This document shows, one piece after another, positions 1 to 6,540 of a DNA stretch of 6,540 nucleotides; position 1 is the stretch's first letter; the number at the start of each line of letters is the position of its first letter. The stretch comes from a virus (taxonomy: Duplodnaviria > Heunggongvirae > Uroviricota > Caudoviricetes). Made by a program: the position numbers and the translations under genes. The stretch is taken from IMG/VR virus record IMGVR_UViG_2711768000_000006; one strand, written 5' to 3'. Below the pieces are notes generated by a model. The model worked only from the letters and a program-made list of their open reading frames with translations, was not told where the DNA came from and searched no databases.

Positions 1-107
1 CTCTCGTCTGGGGAATATCTCCCCGGCAGCCTTCAGGGAAAAATATCATCAGATGGCTGCTTAAAAAAAGAACAAATGGTAGTGTCCGCTATTGCCAGTA
101 CACCTCA
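1..107. repeat. Left arm of a perfect 107-bp inverted repeat (partner 6434..6540)
   Basis: Bases 1-107 are the exact reverse complement of 6434-6540, compared base by base; identity stops at 108 versus 6433. The arm holds 75 bp of upstream sequence plus the first 32 nt of the ORF starting at 76. Confidence 0.95.
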
Positions 108-306
108 TCCATCACCGAAAAAAATTGGCTTTTACACCATTGGCGATAAAAGCATTTACCTGTATGACCTACGCCGCATGGATGAAATCATGGAGGCTCT
201 TGATAATCGTTCGTCGATGGATTGGTGTGTTGCTGTTCATGATATGAATGCAGGGTTTGATGAAAAGATTTTGTTCCCCTCATCAGTTGAAAGCACTGCG
301 GGTTAA
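76..306 (+). CDS. Hypothetical protein, 76 aa; its 5' end lies inside the left inverted-repeat arm
   Basis: ATG-initiated ORF from the six-frame track. No clear Shine-Dalgarno upstream (A-rich aaaaaagaacaa). Co-directional with downstream genes. Product not recognised. Confidence 0.35.
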   Translation: MVVSAIASTPHPSPKKIGFYTIGDKSIYLYDLRRMDEIMEALDNRSSMDWCVAVHDMNAGFDEKILFPSSVESTAG

Positions 307-316
307 GGAGTAACAC

Positions 317-484
317 ATGACCACTATTACCAAAGAACGTATTGAATTGTTCATTAAAAACCCGCTTGAAAACGGGCTTACCCGTGGTGAACAAATGGAA
401 CTGGCACGGATTGCGCTGGCATCGCTGGAAGCAGAGCCGGTTGTGTTCTGGTTTGAAAAATATCAAGAAGGGGCTACGGCATGA
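317..484 (+). CDS. Hypothetical small protein, 55 aa (nin-region type)
   Basis: ATG at 317 preceded by a strong SD AAGGAG (305-310). The stop TGA (482-484) overlaps the next ATG (481-483) in an ATGA arrangement, suggesting translational coupling. Below the 60-aa cutoff of the ORF track. Confidence 0.45.
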
Positions 485-825
485 CGACTTTTACCAGAGA
501 GCAGTTAATAGCTCACGCAGAGGAGACTATTGAAGCACAGAGACTGTGCATACCGGGCACAATCGACCATGACATCATCCGCACATATAAGATGGATATT
601 GCTGTTCTGGAAATCGCACTGGTATCGCTGGCAGCAGAGCCAGCCGGTAAATTGCATGAATACAAACCAGTGGGATATCAGCGTCTGGTCGATGAGTTAA
701 CCATGCTGGTAAAGCAGTTAACCTGGCAACTGAGGAAAGCGAAGCCAGACTGCAAATTACCGGATAAGGCGATGAGTTATCTGGAGCGGAACGGACTGAT
801 AAGCGTGGAGGATATTTTACGATGA
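481..825 (+). CDS. Hypothetical protein, 114 aa
   Basis: ATG overlaps the stop of the upstream ORF (ATGA), with a GAAGGGG SD-like stretch 7 nt upstream. Its stop overlaps the start of the next small ORF. Product not recognised. Confidence 0.5.
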
Positions 826-905
826 CCTGGCCTGAAGCATTAACAACGGTAGGAATTGCGATGGCGGTGGCGCTGGTGGTGTATTCGATTTGCCGCTGGG
901 GATAA
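822..905 (+). CDS. Possible 27-aa hydrophobic peptide ([27 protein letters not shown])
   Basis: ATG 822-824 overlaps the TGA 823-825 of the upstream ORF. The predicted peptide is dominated by a single hydrophobic helix. Very short, so speculative. Confidence 0.25.
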
Positions 906-912
906 AAACGGT

Positions 913-940
913 TTGCGGGAAAAGGAGAGTTAAGTAGAAT
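913..940 (+). promoter_or_regulatory. Candidate sigma70 promoter for hok mRNA (-35 TTGCGG 913-918, -10 TAGAAT 935-940)
   Basis: 16-bp spacer. The predicted start near 947 coincides with the 5' segment (947-958) that is complementary to the 3' end of the locus. Confidence 0.3.
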
Positions 941-1004
941 TGCAGCGGGTGCTTGAGGCTATCTGTCTCAGGCATGAACACCAAAAGGCAGATAGAGAAA
1001 AGCC

Positions 1005-1068
1005 CCAGTTAACATTACGCGTCCGGCAAGACGCTTAACATTAATCTGAGGCTCAATCTATGAACGGC
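1005..1068 (-). ncRNA. Predicted Sok-like antisense RNA covering the mok-like translation initiation region (boundaries approximate)
   Basis: Minus-strand promoter-like elements: -35 TTGCCT (complement of 1098-1103) and -10 TAACCT (complement of 1075-1080), 17-bp spacer. The transcript would be antisense to the SD and ATG at 1047-1062. This matches the known architecture of hok/sok loci. The 3' end is not defined by a clear terminator. Confidence 0.3.
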
Positions 1069-1116
1069 AAATCTAGGTTAGCCTCTTACGTGCCGAAAGG
1101 CAAGGAGAAGCAGGCT

Positions 1117-1272
1117 ATGAAGCAGCAAAAGGCGATGTTAATCGCCCTGATCGTCATCTGTTTAACCGTCATAGTGACGGCACTGGTAACGAGGAAAGAC
1201 CTCTGCGAGGTACGAATTCGAACCGGCCAGACGGAGGTCGCTGTCTTCACAGCTTACGAACCTGAGGAGTAA
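1117..1272 (+). CDS. hok: Hok/Gef-family type I toxin, 51 aa (HokD/RelF-like)
   Basis: Translation MKQQKAMLIALIVICLTVIVTALVTRKDLCEVRIRTGQTEVAVFTAYEPEE has the Hok-family single transmembrane helix and the conserved TRKxLCE and EVAxF motifs. SD AGGAG lies 9 nt upstream. An in-frame upstream ATG at 1060 with its own SD (mok-like) gives the 70-aa ORF in the track. Confidence 0.9.
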   Translation: MKQQKAMLIALIVICLTVIVTALVTRKDLCEVRIRTGQTEVAVFTAYEPEE

Positions 1273-1341
1273 GAGACCAGGCGGGGGAGAAATCCCTCGC
1301 CACCTCTGATGGGGCAGGCATCCTCAATGCACCCACACTTA

Positions 1342-1367
1342 ACCCGCTTCGGCGGGTTTTTGTTTTT
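1342..1367 (+). terminator. Rho-independent terminator at the 3' end of the hok transcript
   Basis: Stem CCCGC (1343-1347), loop TTCG, stem GCGGG (1352-1356), followed by TTTTTGTTTTTATTTT. Confidence 0.6.
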
Positions 1368-1380
1368 ATTTTCAACGCGT

Positions 1381-1410
1381 TTGAAGTTTTAGATGGTGCC
1401 GGAATAGAAT
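1381..1410 (+). promoter_or_regulatory. Candidate sigma70 promoter (-35 TTGAAG 1381-1386, -10 TAGAAT 1405-1410)
   Basis: 18-bp spacer, located just after the hok terminator and about 80 bp upstream of the ORF starting at 1493. Confidence 0.35.
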
Positions 1411-1492
1411 CAAAAATACTTAAGTAGCGCGCAGGGAGAAGAGGGATGGACCCCGAACAGGGGAGTGCTATTTATCTGGAAGGATTCTGTTG

Positions 1493-1774
1493 ATGAAAAT
1501 CGAAGAATTACGTGAAATTTTTAGTGAAGATGGCCTCTATACTGTGCGCGTTGAGAATGGCGCTATTGTCAGCCACTGCCTTCCAGACTACACAATTCTG
1601 ATAATTCAGCCGTCTTTGCCAGCAGGCACGGGCGGCGCTCTCACGCATTTAAATCTGATTGGTACCAGCATCCCCCATGCACTGAAGAACAGGCCGAATG
1701 GCTCATTCAGTGTTACCGCAGGCGCGGATGCGAGGTTAAAAAAGCCCTTAGCCTCGACTACCGTCACTGGATAA
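1493..1774 (+). CDS. Hypothetical small protein, 93 aa; position matches rem of Qin-type prophages
   Basis: ATG at 1493 with SD GGAAGGA 8 nt upstream (the track starts at the preceding TTG, 1490). The C-terminal half has atypical composition, so the true 3' end is uncertain. The rem assignment is positional only (between hok and the DUF968 gene). Confidence 0.4.
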   Translation: MKIEELREIFSEDGLYTVRVENGAIVSHCLPDYTILIIQPSLPAGTGGALTHLNLIGTSIPHALKNRPNGSFSVTAGADARLKKPLASTTVTG

Positions 1775-1849
1775 TCTCCGTCAGGCTCCCTTACTCCGAA
1801 CGGCCAACGCGTCCGTCCCGCACATTCCAGCAACGGATCTGGAGGTAAT

Positions 1850-2908
1850 GTGCGGGTATTACTTCGACCTGTTCTGGTACCGGAACTCGGTCTGGTTATC
1901 GTTAAGCCAGGCCGTGAATCAATGTCAGCATTCCATAACGGCAGAATACTGGTGGAGCCGGAACCAAAAAGCATGCGTAATCTGCCGTCCGGGGTCGTTC
2001 CTGCCGCTCGCCAGCCGCTGGTGGAAGACAAAACATTGCTGCCGTTTTTCAGTAACGCACGGGTGATTCGTGCTGCTGGTGGTGCTGGTGCATTGTCTGA
2101 CTGGCTGTTGCGCCATATTAAATCCTGCCAGTGGCCACACGGCGATTATCATCACAGCGAAACCGTCATTCACCGTTATGGTACCGGCGCAATGGTGTTG
2201 TGCTGGCACTGCGACAACCAGCTGCGTGACCAGACATCCGAATCACTCGAGCAACTTGCTCATCAAAACCTGTCAGCATGGATGATTGACGTCATCGGTC
2301 ACGCAATAAGCGGTACGCAGGAGCGTGAATTATCTCTGGCTGAATTATCCTGGTGGGCGGTCCGCAATCAGGTGGCGGACGCGCTACCGGAAGCGGTATT
2401 ACGTCGTTCGCTGGGGTTGCGTGCGGAAAAAATTCGCTCTGTGTACAGTGAAAGCGACATCATACCGGGAGAGCAGACAGCCACCAGCATACTGAAGCAG
2501 CGCACAAAAAATATTGCGTTACTGCCTCACGTCCACCAGCAACAGAACCCACCACAGGAAAAGACGGTGGTCAGCATTGCCGTTGATCCGGAGTCACCGG
2601 CTCAGTATCTCCAGCGCCAGAAATCACAACGGGAAGAGATGCCTGTATACACGCGCTGGGTAAAAACGCAGAAATGCATGACGTGTGGCAATCAGGCAGA
2701 TGATCCGCATCACATCATTGGTCATGGACTGGGAGGGATGGGAACAAAGGCTGATGATTTGTTTGTTATTCCGTTATGCCGTAAATGCCGTAACGAACTA
2801 CATGCCGGAGTAAAAGATTTTGAAGAGAAACACGGCAGTCAGCTGTTGTTGCTGATTCGTTTTTTAATGCACGCGAGAAATTCGGGTGTTCTGAAGTGGA
2901 AAGCATAA
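1850..2908 (+). CDS. DUF968/YdfU-like prophage protein with a C-terminal HNH-like Cys/His motif
   Basis: 352-aa ORF. The C-terminus contains CMTCGNQADDPHHIIGHG...PLCRKCRNELHAG (CxxC...HH...CxxC...H). GTG start at 1850 follows GGAGG (1841-1845); an alternative ATG is at 1922. The stop TAA is immediately followed by the rusA ATG. Family assignment is from memory of YdfU-like proteins. Confidence 0.7.
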   Translation: MRVLLRPVLVPELGLVIVKPGRESMSAFHNGRILVEPEPKSMRNLPSGVVPAARQPLVEDKTLLPFFSNARVIRAAGGAGALSDWLLRHIKSCQWPHGDYHHSETVIHRYGTGAMVLCWHCDNQLRDQTSESLEQLAHQNLSAWMIDVIGHAISGTQERELSLAELSWWAVRNQVADALPEAVLRRSLGLRAEKIRSVYSESDIIPGEQTATSILKQRTKNIALLPHVHQQQNPPQEKTVVSIAVDPESPAQYLQRQKSQREEMPVYTRWVKTQKCMTCGNQADDPHHIIGHGLGGMGTKADDLFVIPLCRKCRNELHAGVKDFEEKHGSQLLLLIRFLMHARNSGVLKWKA

Positions 2909-3289
2909 ATGACCGAGCGCATAGAATTTGTTTTACCTTACCCGCCGACGGTGAACACTTACTGGCGTCGTCGTGGCAGCACATATTTTGTATCAAAAGC
3001 CGGGGAGCGTTATCGCCGGGCAGTGGCGCTTATTGTTCGCCAGCAGCGGCTGAAATTAAGCCTGTCCGGAAGGTTGGCAATAAAAATTATTGCAGAACCA
3101 CCGGATAAGCGCCGCCGTGACCTGGACAATATTCTGAAAGCGCCGCTGGATGCGCTGACGCATGCGGGGTTGCTAATGGACGATGAGCAGTTTGATGAAA
3201 TCAATATCGTTCGTGCTCAGCCAGTATCTGGTGGACGTCTGGGGGTGAAGATTTATCCCATAATGCTTGAAGGGCAGGTCAAAAAATGA
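2909..3289 (+). CDS. rusA: Crossover junction endodeoxyribonuclease RusA (Holliday junction resolvase)
   Basis: 126-aa product with RusA hallmarks: N-terminal LPYPPTVNTYWRRRG, the catalytic-region motif PDKRRRDLDNILKAPLDALTHAG, and C-terminal GGRL. Lies directly upstream of the Q candidate, as in lambdoid prophages. Confidence 0.9.
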   Translation: MTERIEFVLPYPPTVNTYWRRRGSTYFVSKAGERYRRAVALIVRQQRLKLSLSGRLAIKIIAEPPDKRRRDLDNILKAPLDALTHAGLLMDDEQFDEINIVRAQPVSGGRLGVKIYPIMLEGQVKK

Positions 3290-4107
3290 AACTGGAAGAT
3301 TTACCGAAATACTACTCCCCAAAATCCCCCGGCCTGACTGATGCATCGGCCTCAACGTCGAAAGATGCGCTGAGTATCACTGATGTGATGGCCGCGCAGG
3401 GCATGACACAGAATCGGGCTGAGATGGGGGTTTCTGCGTTCCTTGGGAAAATGGGCATTAGTATGAATGACAGAGAGCGGGCAACAGAATTGCTGACAGA
3501 ATATGCACTCAGTCGGTGTGATCGCGTGGCGGCGTTAAGAAAACTCCCGGCAGAAATAAAACCGGCAGTGATGCGTATTATGGCTTCGTATGCGTTTGAA
3601 GATTATGCCCGTAGCGCGGCGAGCAAAAAACAGTGCCCCTGCTGTCACGGAAAAAAATTTATTGAAAGCGAGGTTTTTACAAACAAGATCCAGTATCCGG
3701 ATGGTAAGCCGCCGGTATGGGCAAAGTGTACGAAAGGTGTGTATCCGTCTTACTGGGAAGAATGGAAAAAAGTCAGGGAGGTGGTAAAAGTTGCCTGTCC
3801 GGAGTGTGGCGGAAAGGGTGAGGTTTCCACCGCCTGTAAGGATTGCCGTGGGCGTGGTGTCGCCATTCATCGTGAAGAGTCGGTAAAACGTGGTATGCCT
3901 GTTATCAGAGACTGCCAGCGTTGTGGTGGTCGTGGCTATGAAAGACTACCATCAACGGAGGCATTTAATGCTATATGCGAGGTGACAAACCAGATAACAC
4001 GCGCGTCATGGGAAAAAACAGTTAAGAAATTTTATGATGCGCTGGTGACCCGGTTTGATATTGAAGAAGCATGGGCTGAGCGGCAGTTAAAAAAGGTAAC
4101 TAGGTAA
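3286..4107 (+). CDS. Putative late-gene antiterminator Q with DnaJ-like zinc-finger repeats
   Basis: 273-aa ORF whose ATG overlaps the rusA stop (ATGA). Contains CPCCHGKK plus three CxxCxGxG motifs (CPECGGKG, CKDCRGRG, CQRCGGRG). Sits between rusA and a pR'-like promoter and terminator, the canonical Q position. The assignment is positional plus motif-based, not a confirmed match. Confidence 0.6.
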   Translation: MKLEDLPKYYSPKSPGLTDASASTSKDALSITDVMAAQGMTQNRAEMGVSAFLGKMGISMNDRERATELLTEYALSRCDRVAALRKLPAEIKPAVMRIMASYAFEDYARSAASKKQCPCCHGKKFIESEVFTNKIQYPDGKPPVWAKCTKGVYPSYWEEWKKVREVVKVACPECGGKGEVSTACKDCRGRGVAIHREESVKRGMPVIRDCQRCGGRGYERLPSTEAFNAICEVTNQITRASWEKTVKKFYDALVTRFDIEEAWAERQLKKVTR

Positions 4108-4112
4108 CAAGG

Positions 4113-4140
4113 TTGATTTTTCCGGAATCTGTGGTAAATT
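4113..4140 (+). promoter_or_regulatory. pR'-like late promoter (-35 TTGATT 4113-4118, extended -10 TGgTAAATT 4132-4140)
   Basis: 16-bp spacer. The -10 TAAATT with an upstream TG resembles the lambda pR' -10. Begins 6 bp after the Q stop. Confidence 0.5.
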
Positions 4141-4187
4141 CGTTATAACGATGGGCGTTTTATGCCTGACGTTAGAAGAGTTTCTAC

Positions 4188-4212
4188 AACCCGCCGCCGA
4201 GCGGGTTTTTTA
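4188..4212 (+). terminator. tR'-like rho-independent terminator ending a roughly 65-nt leader RNA
   Basis: Stem AACCCGC (4188-4194), loop CGCCGA, stem GCGGGTT, then a T-run (4206-4211). Lies about 50-65 nt downstream of the predicted pR' start, analogous to the short terminated late leader of lambdoid phages. Confidence 0.55.
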
Positions 4213-4331
4213 TGACTGAAATCGCGTCAGTACAGTAAACGCGCTGGTGGCGGTGAATACCTGTCTTTCAGCTTGCTGGCTTTTTCGACAAGAGTTATTG
4301 GTGTGTCACGTTAACCGGAAAAGGAAAAGAC

Positions 4332-4529
4332 ATGCTAAAACAGCAGGATATGACAGAAACCGCCAGAGTGGTGTTTAATGAATTAAGCGTTACCGAACCG
4401 GCGACAGTCGGGGAGATAGCGCAGAATACTTACCTTTCACGCGAACGCTGCCAGTTAATACTGACCCAGCTGGTTATGGCGGGTCTGGCAGACTATCAGT
4501 TCGGTTGTTACAGACGCCTTCCGCAGTGA
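4332..4529 (+). CDS. Small hypothetical protein, 65 aa, possible winged-helix DNA-binding fold
   Basis: ATG with SD AAGGA 6 nt upstream. The segment VGEIAQNTYLSRERCQLILTQLVMAGLADY resembles a helix-turn-helix or winged-helix. A terminator-like hairpin overlaps the stop. Confidence 0.45.
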   Translation: MLKQQDMTETARVVFNELSVTEPATVGEIAQNTYLSRERCQLILTQLVMAGLADYQFGCYRRLPQ

Positions 4530-4540
4530 AGGCTTTTTTA
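4516..4540 (+). terminator. Rho-independent terminator-like hairpin overlapping the stop of the 65-aa ORF
   Basis: Stem GCCTTC (4516-4521), loop CGCAGT, stem GAAGGC (4528-4533), followed by TTTTTTATTT. Confidence 0.45.
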
Positions 4541-4558
4541 TTTGTGGTAAATGGGCGG

Positions 4559-4585
4559 CTGGTGGGTGTTAGGGGCACCCACCAG
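4559..4585. other. Perfect 10-bp stem-loop (CTGGTGGGTG / TTAGGGG / CACCCACCAG) in the leader upstream of the methyltransferase gene
   Basis: Exact reverse-complement arms at 4559-4568 and 4576-4585, with no T-run afterwards. A second near-palindrome lies at 4629-4647 (CTGCTTTGC GCAAAAGCAG). Confidence 0.5.
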
Positions 4586-4679
4586 CCATCTGCTCATGCG
4601 TTGGGTTCACAAGCAAACCTCAGGCCCACTGCTTTGCGCAAAAGCAGAATGAGCCTATCAGAGACAGGCTTAATGATCC

Positions 4680-5738
4680 ATGCTTAATACTGTAAAAATA
4701 TCCAGTTGTGAGTTAATCAACGCCGACTGCCTGGAATTTATCCGGTCGTTACCCGAAAATTCTGTTGACCTGATAGTCACGGACCCGCCGTACTTTAAAG
4801 TGAAGCCTGAGGGCTGGGATAACCAGTGGAAGGGCGACGATGATTACCTGAAGTGGCTGGACCAGTGTCTGGCGCAGTTCTGGCGGGTGCTGAAACCTGC
4901 CGGAAGTCTTTACCTGTTCTGTGGTCATCGCCTGGCATCTGATATCGAAATCATGATGCGTGAACGCTTCAGTGTGCTGAACCATATTATCTGGGCGAAG
5001 CCGTCCGGACGCTGGAACGGATGCAACAAGGAAAGCCTGCGGGCGTATTTCCCCGCCACAGAGCGCATTCTGTTCGCGGAACATTATCAGGGGCCGTATC
5101 GTCCGAAAGATGCCGGGTATGCGGCGAAGGGCAGTGCACTGAAACAGCATGTGATGGCCCCGCTGATTTCTTACTTTCGTGATGCGCGAGCTGCCCTGGG
5201 GATAACGGCAAAACAGATTGCAGATGCCACAGGAAAGAAAAACATGGTGTCGCACTGGTTCAGTGCCGGTCAGTGGCAGTTGCCGAATGAAAGCGATTAT
5301 CTGAAATTACAGGCGCTGTTTGCCCGGGTGGCAGAAGAGAAGCATCGGCGTGGTGAACTGGAAAAGCTCCACCACCAGCTGGTGGATACGTATACCTCAC
5401 TGAACCGGCAGTATGCGGAGCTGCTGAGTGAATATAAACATCTGCGGCGGTATTTTGGCGTGACGGTGCAGGTGCCGTATACCGATGTGTGGACGCATAA
5501 ACCGGTGCAGTTCTATCCCGGGAAACATCCGTGCGAAAAACCGGCAGAAATGCTGCAGCAGATAATCAGCGCTAGCAGTCGTCCGGGTGACCTGATTGCA
5601 GATTTTTTCATGGGGTTGGGTTCGACAGTGAAAGCGGCACTGGCGCTCGGGCGTCGTGCAATTGGCGTTGAGCTGGAGACTGAACGTTTTGAGCAGACGG
5701 TTCGGGAAGTACAGGATTTAGTCAGCCAGAACGGATGA
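4680..5738 (+). CDS. DNA amino-methyltransferase (N6-adenine or N4-cytosine), beta-class motif order, no adjacent restriction enzyme
   Basis: 352-aa ORF with motif IV DLIVTDPPYF near the N-terminus and the AdoMet-binding motif I DFFMGLGST near the C-terminus (motif IV before motif I). The long middle region contains an HTH-like segment (LGITAKQIADATGKK). No cognate endonuclease ORF is present. Confidence 0.85.
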   Translation: MLNTVKISSCELINADCLEFIRSLPENSVDLIVTDPPYFKVKPEGWDNQWKGDDDYLKWLDQCLAQFWRVLKPAGSLYLFCGHRLASDIEIMMRERFSVLNHIIWAKPSGRWNGCNKESLRAYFPATERILFAEHYQGPYRPKDAGYAAKGSALKQHVMAPLISYFRDARAALGITAKQIADATGKKNMVSHWFSAGQWQLPNESDYLKLQALFARVAEEKHRRGELEKLHHQLVDTYTSLNRQYAELLSEYKHLRRYFGVTVQVPYTDVWTHKPVQFYPGKHPCEKPAEMLQQIISASSRPGDLIADFFMGLGSTVKAALALGRRAIGVELETERFEQTVREVQDLVSQNG

Positions 5739-5778
5739 TATTGAAGAATTAATTACGCGTCGTTATTATGCGGCTCCC

Positions 5779-5854
5779 GGCCCTTTAGCTCAGTGGTGAG
5801 AGCGAGCGACTCATAATCGCCAGGTCGCTGGTTCAAATCCAGCAAGGGCCACCA
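5779..5854 (+). tRNA. tRNA-Ile2 (anticodon CAT, lysidine type), ileX/ileZ-like, with encoded CCA
   Basis: Manual cloverleaf: acceptor GGCCCTT/AAGGGCC, D-arm GCTC..GAGC, anticodon loop CTCATAA, T-arm GCTGG TTCAAAT CCAGC, discriminator A, CCA. Closely resembles E. coli ileX as recalled. By anticodon alone it could also be scored as Met. Confidence 0.8.
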
Positions 5855-5861
5855 TCACATA

Positions 5862-5938
5862 CCGCCATTAGCTCATCAGGAAAGAGCGCCAGCCTTCGAA
5901 GCTGGCTGCGCGGGGTTCAAGTCCCCGATGGCGGTCCA
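5862..5938 (+). tRNA. tRNA-Arg (anticodon TCG), with encoded CCA
   Basis: Manual cloverleaf: acceptor CCGCCAT/ATGGCGG (7 perfect pairs), D-arm GCTC..GAGC, anticodon stem CCAGC/GCTGG with loop CTTCGAA, T-arm CGGGG TTCAAGT CCCCG, discriminator T, CCA. The C1-G72 start is unusual but it folds cleanly. Confidence 0.7.
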
Positions 5939-5951
5939 TTATCTGCATCAT

Positions 5952-6009
5952 GCGTTGTTAGCTCAGCCGGACAGAGCAATTGCCTTCTAAGCAATCGGTC
6001 ACTGGTTCG
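5952..6009 (+). pseudogene. 3'-truncated tRNA-Arg (anticodon TCT), argU/argO-like; breaks in the T-loop
   Basis: Acceptor 5' strand GCGTTGT, D-arm GCTC..GAGC, anticodon stem ATTGC/GCAAT with loop CTTCTAA, and the T-stem 5' strand ACTGG followed by TTCG are intact. The expected T-stem 3' strand and acceptor 3' strand (ACAACGC) are absent and replaced by CTTTTGCGGGCCTTTTTTTT. Confidence 0.6.
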
Positions 6010-6227
6010 CTTTTGCGGGCCTTTTTTTTAAATGTCTCACAATTCAGACGGTTGACAGTTGTCTGTTTTGCGGGGAGTTTGTTAAAAGAAACTGGCATGG
6101 TGAATCCCCCTGTGCGGAGGGGCAATCAGCGAGTAGGTATATGGGATAATCGCGGATTCAGGTGCTGGTACTGAATTCACCGGGAGGCACCCGGCATCAT
6201 GCAATGGCACATAGCGCCACTCTCCAG

Positions 6228-6250
6228 CCCTCTCCGGAGGGGCTTTTCTG
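6228..6250 (+). terminator. Weak terminator-like hairpin (CCCTC / TCCG / GAGGG followed by GCTTTTCT)
   Basis: 5-bp GC-rich stem with tetraloop and a short T-rich tail, in an otherwise ORF-free region. Weak. Confidence 0.25.
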
Positions 6251-6433
6251 TGCCGGATACATCACAGTTTCTGGAACCTTAGGTACTACAGTATCAGTCA
6301 GGGTGCTATATTTTCAGATGTGATGAAAGCCTGTCAGCAGGCAGGGCGTATCGGAAATGACCCAGTAGAGAAAACGTTGACTCAGATACCGGTGCTGAGT
6401 TACCGGGAAACCGGCATCACATGACCGCTATCC

Positions 6434-6540
6434 TGAGGTGTACTGGCAATAGCGGACACTACCATTTGTTCTTTTTTTAAGCAGCCATCTGATGATATTT
6501 TTCCCTGAAGGCTGCCGGGGAGATATTCCCCAGACGAGAG
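6434..6540. repeat. Right arm of the perfect 107-bp inverted repeat (partner 1..107)
   Basis: Exact reverse complement of 1-107. Read on the minus strand it reproduces the upstream region and first 32 nt of the ORF at 76, then continues as only a 21-codon ORF (complement 6400-6465). Confidence 0.95.

Follow-up and report, generated by a model that had tools for sequence, protein, structure and literature searches.

The 6,540-nucleotide stretch of DNA analyzed here (hereafter, the window) is, with a probability of about 0.95, a 6.3-kb piece of prophage lying between two full-length, inverted copies of the insertion sequence IS600 whose right ends face inward. As the window takes in just the innermost 107 bp of each IS600, it gives the appearance of a perfect terminal inverted repeat. 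An IS600-flanked segment of decayed prophage is an ordinary and already documented arrangement in Shigella sonnei, and the locus adds one more case to the well-documented expansion of IS600 that has cut up and rearranged the prophages of this organism. A practical caution follows for similar records: a perfect inverted repeat that coincides with the two ends of a contig-sized window indicates a segment between collapsed IS copies and is not the signature of a new mobile or invertible element.

The terminal repeats and IS600

A repeat search of the window confirmed the initial annotation in that positions 1–107 and 6434–6540 are exact reverse complements (107 nt, 100% complementary, 6326 nt apart) and that the inverted match ends at 108/6433. 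By our own arithmetic, arms of this length have a chance expectation of approximately 1e-57 (about 2e7 position pairs × 4^-107), so the repeat is not due to chance. Judged by their sequence, the arms are the right ends of IS600. The right end of copy 1 occupies positions 1–107 on the plus strand, with the body of the element to the left of the window, and was assigned by identity of the arm to annotated IS600; the right end of copy 2 occupies positions 6434–6540 on the minus strand, in inverted orientation and with its body to the right, and is part of a full copy in 15 of 18 closed chromosomes. A sequence 100% identical to the arm is present in 2887 of 5426 complete E. coli genomes, on both chromosomes and plasmids and in up to 43 copies per genome, where it is annotated as 'IS3-like element IS600 family transposase'. 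Positions 2–64 in frame 2 encode the last 20 codons and the stop of transposase orfB, reading SRLGNISPAAFREKYHQMAA, and the right terminal inverted repeat of IS600 ends with ...GTACACCTCA (...CACCTCA) at base 107. In the annotated copy of L001, the end of the IS600 coding sequence likewise corresponds to window position 64 and the end of the element to position 107.

These results overturn the earlier statement that the repeated unit was 'not an IS end', and its description as a gene start (75 bp of upstream DNA and 32 coding nt) in fact refers to a chimeric open reading frame (ORF) that opens at an ATG within the IS terminal repeat. The inner limit of the arms (107/108 and 6433/6434) is biologically real, being the terminus of IS600. 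The outer limit is only the window edge: in closed genomes, the inverted repeat extends to 1264 bp on each side, which answers positively the check proposed earlier, namely whether the repeat continues past the window, and bears out the option that the arms belong to a longer inverted duplication of which the window shows the inner margin. The absence of a transposase between the arms, also pointed out before, holds as well, the transposases being located just beyond the window edges in the closed genomes.

The flanking copies are 1264 bp long and 99.6–99.9% identical to the annotated copy in L001. They start with TGAGGTAGCC..., end with ...GTACACCTCA and have TG...CA termini, and their terminal repeats are imperfect, with 19 of the first 27 positions matching between the two ends (our own count). 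Their transposase genes, called either as 100 and 272 aa products or as a 385-aa fusion, match the Pfam families HTH_Tnp_1, HTH_21, rve, rve_3 and rve_2, and the PGAP label in L001 ('IS3-like element IS600 family transposase, programmed frameshift') agrees with an orfA/orfB pair joined by a −1 frameshift. The right end, length, TG...CA termini, orfA/orfB frameshift, rve DDE domain and 3-bp target duplication are all shared with IS600 (IS3 family, IS3 group), and the element itself shows no difference; the window merely carries its last 107 bp on each side. IS600 is one of five insertion sequences that are expanded in all Shigella species (PMC7373316).

The locus in closed chromosomes and draft assemblies

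The same locus was found in S. sonnei Ss046, a reference genome of the same organism, and in 17 other closed chromosomes. Except for one 39-bp deletion, the window aligns at >99.9% to Ss046 (CP000038.1; PMC6562246) and to other closed chromosomes. Two full-length inverted IS600 copies flank the prophage segment beside ompW in 15 of the 18 distinct closed chromosomes, the right one being a full 1264-bp minus-strand copy directly to the right of window position 6433. On the left, a full 1264-bp copy is present at this position in L002–L011. Beyond the IS600 copies, the outer flanks carry a DUF977 gene on the left and a gene for a 617-aa SASA-domain protein on the right. The two flanking copies of Ss046 differ from each other at 2 positions. 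Three chromosomes (L008, L014 and L019) contain the segment and the left IS600 together with an empty and intact right site. The repeat is therefore a real duplication, as the initial annotation had held, with full IS600 copies on both sides in closed genomes.

Neither window junction was detected in the 5426 complete E. coli genomes, in which each flank alone matches at 99.6–100%. GTDB is believed to place S. sonnei within E. coli, and this is the likely reason why a degenerate pattern spanning both junctions had no match in a contig collection in which each GTDB species is probably represented by a single genome. IS expansion and IS-flanked inversions have been described in S. sonnei (Hawkey et al. 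2020, PMC7373316; PMC12795559); the structural variants listed in these two papers are >7 kb, and the present 6.3-kb segment is not named among them.

In most assemblies, the prophage segment sits on a contig of 2–10 kb. One draft contig of 6236 bp also has 107-bp IS600 arms (L050), another has 74-bp IS600 arms (L135), and a third ends 107 nt into IS600 (L049). Because other draft contigs end likewise in IS600, the 107-bp arm looks like a draft-assembly cutoff, and the truncation of the arms is probably a property of the assembly. The arm length may mark the point at which short-read assembly broke off within the collapsed repeat; as a lead only, 107 is one of the k-mer sizes that Unicycler tries with SPAdes. 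It is highly improbable that the pair itself arose in this way, i.e., that the genome has one arm and that the second was made by misassembly or a chimeric read. Such an artefact would account for both arms touching the window edges, and the recurrence of the 107-nt length at other draft contig ends does point to assembler behavior; however, both junctions recur with full IS600 copies in 15 chromosomes that were closed independently, the finished Ss046 among them, and the assembly-related features are confined to the truncation of the arms and do not extend to the inverted pair. The earlier suggestion of an assembly artefact thus fails for the structure and is probably correct for the arm length.

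Insertion history, mobility and inversion

The two IS600 copies differ in their target sites. Comparison of the flanks identified TCC at positions 6431–6433 as the inner copy of the 3-bp target duplication of copy 2, which lies in the context ...gctaTCC–IS600–TCCttcc... with a clean TCC duplication, and the empty site in L008, L014 and L019 reads GCTATCCTTCCAGG. Since the right copy is missing from these three chromosomes and the empty site is intact, it was inserted directly at its present site. The left copy lacks a target duplication in place (TTT versus TCC): TCC at positions 108–110 is its target triplet, and the other TCC half-site is found approximately 3 kb away, inverted and fused to an integrase fragment. 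This copy therefore shows signs of rearrangement, and its history is not one of simple insertion. A simple inversion between the left copy and either the right or a third IS600 was considered as the cause of the absent duplication, but the flanking triplets fit neither. The two target sites agree at 10 of 11 bases (GAYCGCTATCC), a resemblance that might reflect a preference of IS600 for certain targets; given that a motif of this type is absent from 104 other distinct IS600 right-end flanks in IMG/VR, the shared 11-mer is regarded as a probable coincidence.

Transposition of the IS3 family via a circular copy-out intermediate is established, and each IS600 presumably arrived by copy-out/paste-in transposition of this kind with the OrfAB frameshift transposase. 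The pair would now serve only as 1.26 kb of homology for RecA-type recombination. Composite transposons of the Tn5/Tn10 type also consist of inverted IS copies around a cargo, and the present locus shares this formal layout, with two inverted copies of one IS bracketing the cargo. Joint movement of both IS600 copies and the 6.3-kb cargo as one unit is nevertheless extremely unlikely. The outer flanks (...aatTTT and TCCttc...) show no target duplication shared by such a unit, and the right copy, having its own TCC on both sides, was inserted alone, as a demonstrably later and independent event; the three chromosomes mentioned above hold the cargo with the left copy only. Moreover, the cargo consists of native prophage DNA that runs collinear with ordinary E. 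coli prophages, the prophage context is the same wherever the right-hand flank is preserved, and no unrelated site was observed to carry the IS600–cargo–IS600 unit as a whole. With the right copy inserted in place with its own duplication and the left copy rearranged and without one, the locus is not a composite transposon.

The initial annotation had also proposed that the arms are paralogous, inverted copies of a prophage gene start, which could permit RecA-mediated inversion of the segment. In favor of gene starts or a dedicated invertible switch, a 76-aa ORF begins at the left-hand ATG (base 76), and the corresponding ATG of the right arm starts an ORF of 21 codons. However, the shared 107 bp belong to a multicopy insertion sequence, the 76-aa ORF joins the IS end to the 3′ portion of an interrupted 87-aa gene, and neither the ORF list nor a Pfam search revealed an invertase or recombinase within the segment. 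The proposal of paralogous gene starts is thereby refuted, and either form of this explanation has a next to negligible probability. In every one of the 18 chromosomes, the cargo points the same way with respect to the right outer flank, and a cargo flipped between the two IS600 copies was observed in none of them (0/18). Accordingly, of the two features of a programmed inversion switch, both orientations among isolates and a dedicated invertase, neither was found among the consensus chromosomes compared. Such copies do recombine homologously at the locus: neighboring DNA has been rearranged by IS600-to-IS600 recombination in three strains, and in L005 the left copy and a third IS600 bound an inversion. 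This part of the RecA idea is retained, whereas inversion of the 6.3-kb segment itself was not observed. A low-frequency recombinational flip by the inverted IS600 pair in subpopulations of S. sonnei appears improbable; if true, it would reverse the Q–methylase–tRNA module relative to the downstream lysis genes, and such heterogeneity would be hidden from consensus assemblies.

Content of the prophage segment

The 6.3-kb segment between the IS600 copies is part of a degenerate lambdoid prophage located next to ompW in S. sonnei, and all features described below are on the plus strand. Positions 108–306 contain the 3′ part of the 87-aa phage gene broken by IS600 copy 1, which has no Pfam family and is intact in L012 (3937–4200). 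The 76-aa ORF at 76–306 is therefore a chimera whose ATG lies inside the IS end, and E. coli matches to the interior begin or stop at window base 107/108. Two small phage ORFs of 55 and 114 aa (317–825) have no Pfam match and no assigned function. They are followed by a hok/sok type I toxin-antitoxin locus (947–1272), which comprises an Rfam sok match at 947–1122 (RF01794, 112 bits) and a Hok/mok ORF at 1060–1272 (PF01848 HOK_GEF, E = 3e-23). A remnant of the rem region (1490–1774) was recognized by comparison with longer alleles, which match PF27490 (Rem): at 1580/1581 the window lacks a stretch of 250 bp that L008 has, and L014 and L019 share the longer gene layout of L008.

Downstream, the segment encodes a DUF968 (YdfU-like) protein with a weak HNH-like match (1850–2908; PF06147, E = 2.6e-62), a RusA Holliday-junction resolvase (2909–3289; PF05866, E = 1.5e-16), the late-gene antiterminator Q (3286–4107; PF03589, E = 1.6e-53), and a phage DNA methyltransferase of the N6/N4 type (4680–5738; PF01555, E = 7.9e-42). 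A tRNA cluster (5779–6010) contains a tRNA with a CAU anticodon (5779–5854), tRNA-Arg UCG (5862–5938), and a third tRNA, tRNA-Arg UCU, that is truncated by the 39-bp deletion at 6009/6010. This deletion sets the window apart from all closed genomes: the missing 39 bp are present in 10 of 10 loci (L002–L011), L011 has three intact tRNAs, and the deletion junction had no match in IMG/VR or JGI metagenomes. A match to the STnc100 family of small RNAs (RF02076, 123.6 bits) covers positions 6066–6255. The order of hok, rem, ydfU/DUF968, rusA, Q, methylase, and tRNAs is that of the lambdoid nin–Q–tRNA region in E. coli ompW-site prophages and Stx phages, at 90–97% identity, whereas the S. sonnei segment has been severed from the replication and lysis genes by IS600 and has small deletions.

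Identity of the terminal repeat

A repeat search confirmed the perfect inverted repeat that the initial annotation had placed at both ends of the window: bases 1-107 and 6434-6540 are 100% complementary over 107 nt, are separated by a 6326-nt spacer, and cease to match at 108/6433. Since only ~1e-57 such pairs are expected by our own arithmetic (~2e7 position pairs x 4^-107), a chance origin is impossible. When the whole window was compared with 5426 complete E. coli genomes by megablast, its interior matched lambdoid prophage DNA from base 108 onward. Junction-spanning queries found neither junction in any of these genomes; bases 108-330 matched alone at 100% and bases 6200-6434 alone at 99.6%. 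The 107-bp arm by itself was present in 2887 of the 5426 genomes, on both chromosomes and plasmids and in up to 43 copies per genome, and the features overlying its matches were annotated as 'IS3-like element IS600 family transposase'. In an annotated E. coli copy (locus L001), the transposase CDS ('programmed frameshift') stops at the equivalent of window position 64 and the element terminates at the equivalent of position 107, beyond which the disrupted ninF continues. Translation of window bases 2-64 in frame 2 yields the end of orfB, SRLGNISPAAFREKYHQMAA followed by the stop, and the IS600 right end in the arm terminates in ...GTACACCTCA. Taken together, the annotation, the CDS and element ends in L001 and the orfB translation identify the arm as the right end of IS600. 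The repeat had been read as a gene 5′ region and not an IS end, which is incorrect given the annotation and the orfB terminus; the ATG lies inside the IS600 terminal repeat and opens a reading frame by chance. In the resulting ORF (76-306, 76 aa), 32 nt of IS600 terminal repeat run into the 3′ portion of an interrupted 87-aa phage gene; gene callers count this fusion as a protein across 795 blocks of a public collection.

Flanking IS600 copies and the length of the arms

An exact-protein look-up showed that several closed chromosomes, including CP000038.1, which is Shigella sonnei Ss046 (PMC6562246), carry the identical DUF968 protein. The window aligned to these closed loci at >99.9% identity with both junctions included. 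In Ss046, a full 1264-bp IS600 lies on each side in inverted orientation, with right ends pointing inward and two differing positions between the copies, and a third copy follows 3.5 kb beyond the right one. Genomes added by searching with the chimeric 76-aa ORF brought the set to 18 distinct closed chromosomes, 15 of which have both copies around the prophage segment (6362-6365 bp between copies, or 8966 bp in a single genome that has an additional insertion); the remaining three (L008, L014 and L019) have the left copy only. The repeat thus reaches far past the window, and transposase genes sit immediately beyond the window edges; this agrees with the proposal that the arms were the inner edge of a larger inverted duplication. 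The inverted repeat is real and its mechanism understood. The 2005-era Ss046 reference already shows the IS600-flanked arrangement.

Searching IMG/VR with the right end of IS600 revealed many draft contigs that stop within the element, and the segment lies on a 2-10 kb contig in most assemblies. One contig of 6236 bp (L050) has the same left junction as the window and perfect 107-bp terminal arms, and another (L049) likewise stops 107 nt inside the element, while L135 (4604 bp) has 74-bp arms and L122 (8417 bp) has arms of 67 and 66 nt. Because draft contigs end inside IS600 in this way, the arm length looks to be set by how deep the assembler ran into a collapsed repeat. Contigs that both start and end in IS600 right ends represent a recurrent assembly pattern, which can mimic a bounded element.

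Insertion history and recombination at the locus

The right copy arose by simple insertion in place and postdates the left copy; it has TCC on each side, and the intact site GCTATCCTTCCAGG is present in the three chromosomes that lack it. These three may preserve an earlier form of the locus, as all are without the right copy. In L008 the rem region also has 250 bp, at window 1580/1581, that are missing from the window and Ss046; judging by their gene layout, L014 and L019 apparently have them too. The left copy has TTT outside and TCC inside, and hence lacks a target duplication. Against an intact E. coli prophage (L012), the left copy can be seen to have landed in the 87-aa gene at ...GCTATCC^ATCACC. 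That gene's upstream half, terminated by TCC, is found inverted ~3 kb leftward, alongside the genes for DUF4014 and DUF977 (5189-5762 and 6533-6995 in the Ss046 locus L011 vs 2977-4004 in L012), joined, by our own reading of the sequence, to an integrase fragment beside ompW. This displaced, inverted half indicates that the left copy was involved in a rearrangement, and suggests that an IS-associated inversion or deletion took place long ago left of copy 1. A composite transposon arriving as a unit is ruled out, because the outer flanks of the unit differ and one copy inserted on its own. The two independent target sites, GATCGCTATCC and GACCGCTATCC (window 108-110 and 6423-6433; L012 about 3990-4004), share 10 of 11 bases, including the duplicated TCC; their likeness is probably a coincidence, as the motif was not seen in 104 other IS600 right-end flanks in IMG/VR.

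IS600-to-IS600 recombination is visible at the locus. Relative to Ss046, S. sonnei L005 has exchanged and reversed outer flanks at the left and third copies (L005 6552-8259 and 19349-21059, compared with L011), equivalent to an inversion of the 13.6 kb that separate copies 1 and 3, and L007 and L010 have unrelated DNA as the outer flank left of copy 1. These observations agree with the literature, in which both IS expansion and inversions flanked by IS elements are described for S. sonnei (PMC7373316; PMC12795559). Inversion of the 6.3-kb segment itself, as initially suggested, is mechanistically possible but was not observed: the orientation of the segment relative to the right outer flank is identical in 18/18 closed chromosomes.

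Prophage segment between the copies

The segment contains a hok/sok locus (Rfam sok 947-1122; Hok ORF 1060-1272), a remnant of rem, DUF968 (1850-2908), RusA (2909-3289), antiterminator Q (3286-4107), a DNA methyltransferase (4680-5738), and two tRNAs plus a truncated third (tRNA-Arg UCU, 5952-6010), as is typical for E. coli lambdoid prophages of the ompW-site and Stx types. Relative to E. coli and to the ten closed S. sonnei loci compared (L002-L011), the window is missing 39 bp at 6009/6010; the near-repeats CTGGTTCG and CTGGCTCG bracket this deletion, which truncates the third tRNA by its 3′ part. Neither IMG/VR nor the JGI metagenomes yielded the deletion junction, and the deletion is specific to the strain or else an assembly error. 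The interval from the tRNA cluster to the right IS600 copy, which is the position occupied by stx in Stx phages, contains a strong match to the STnc100 sRNA family (6066-6255; Rfam, 123.6 bits).
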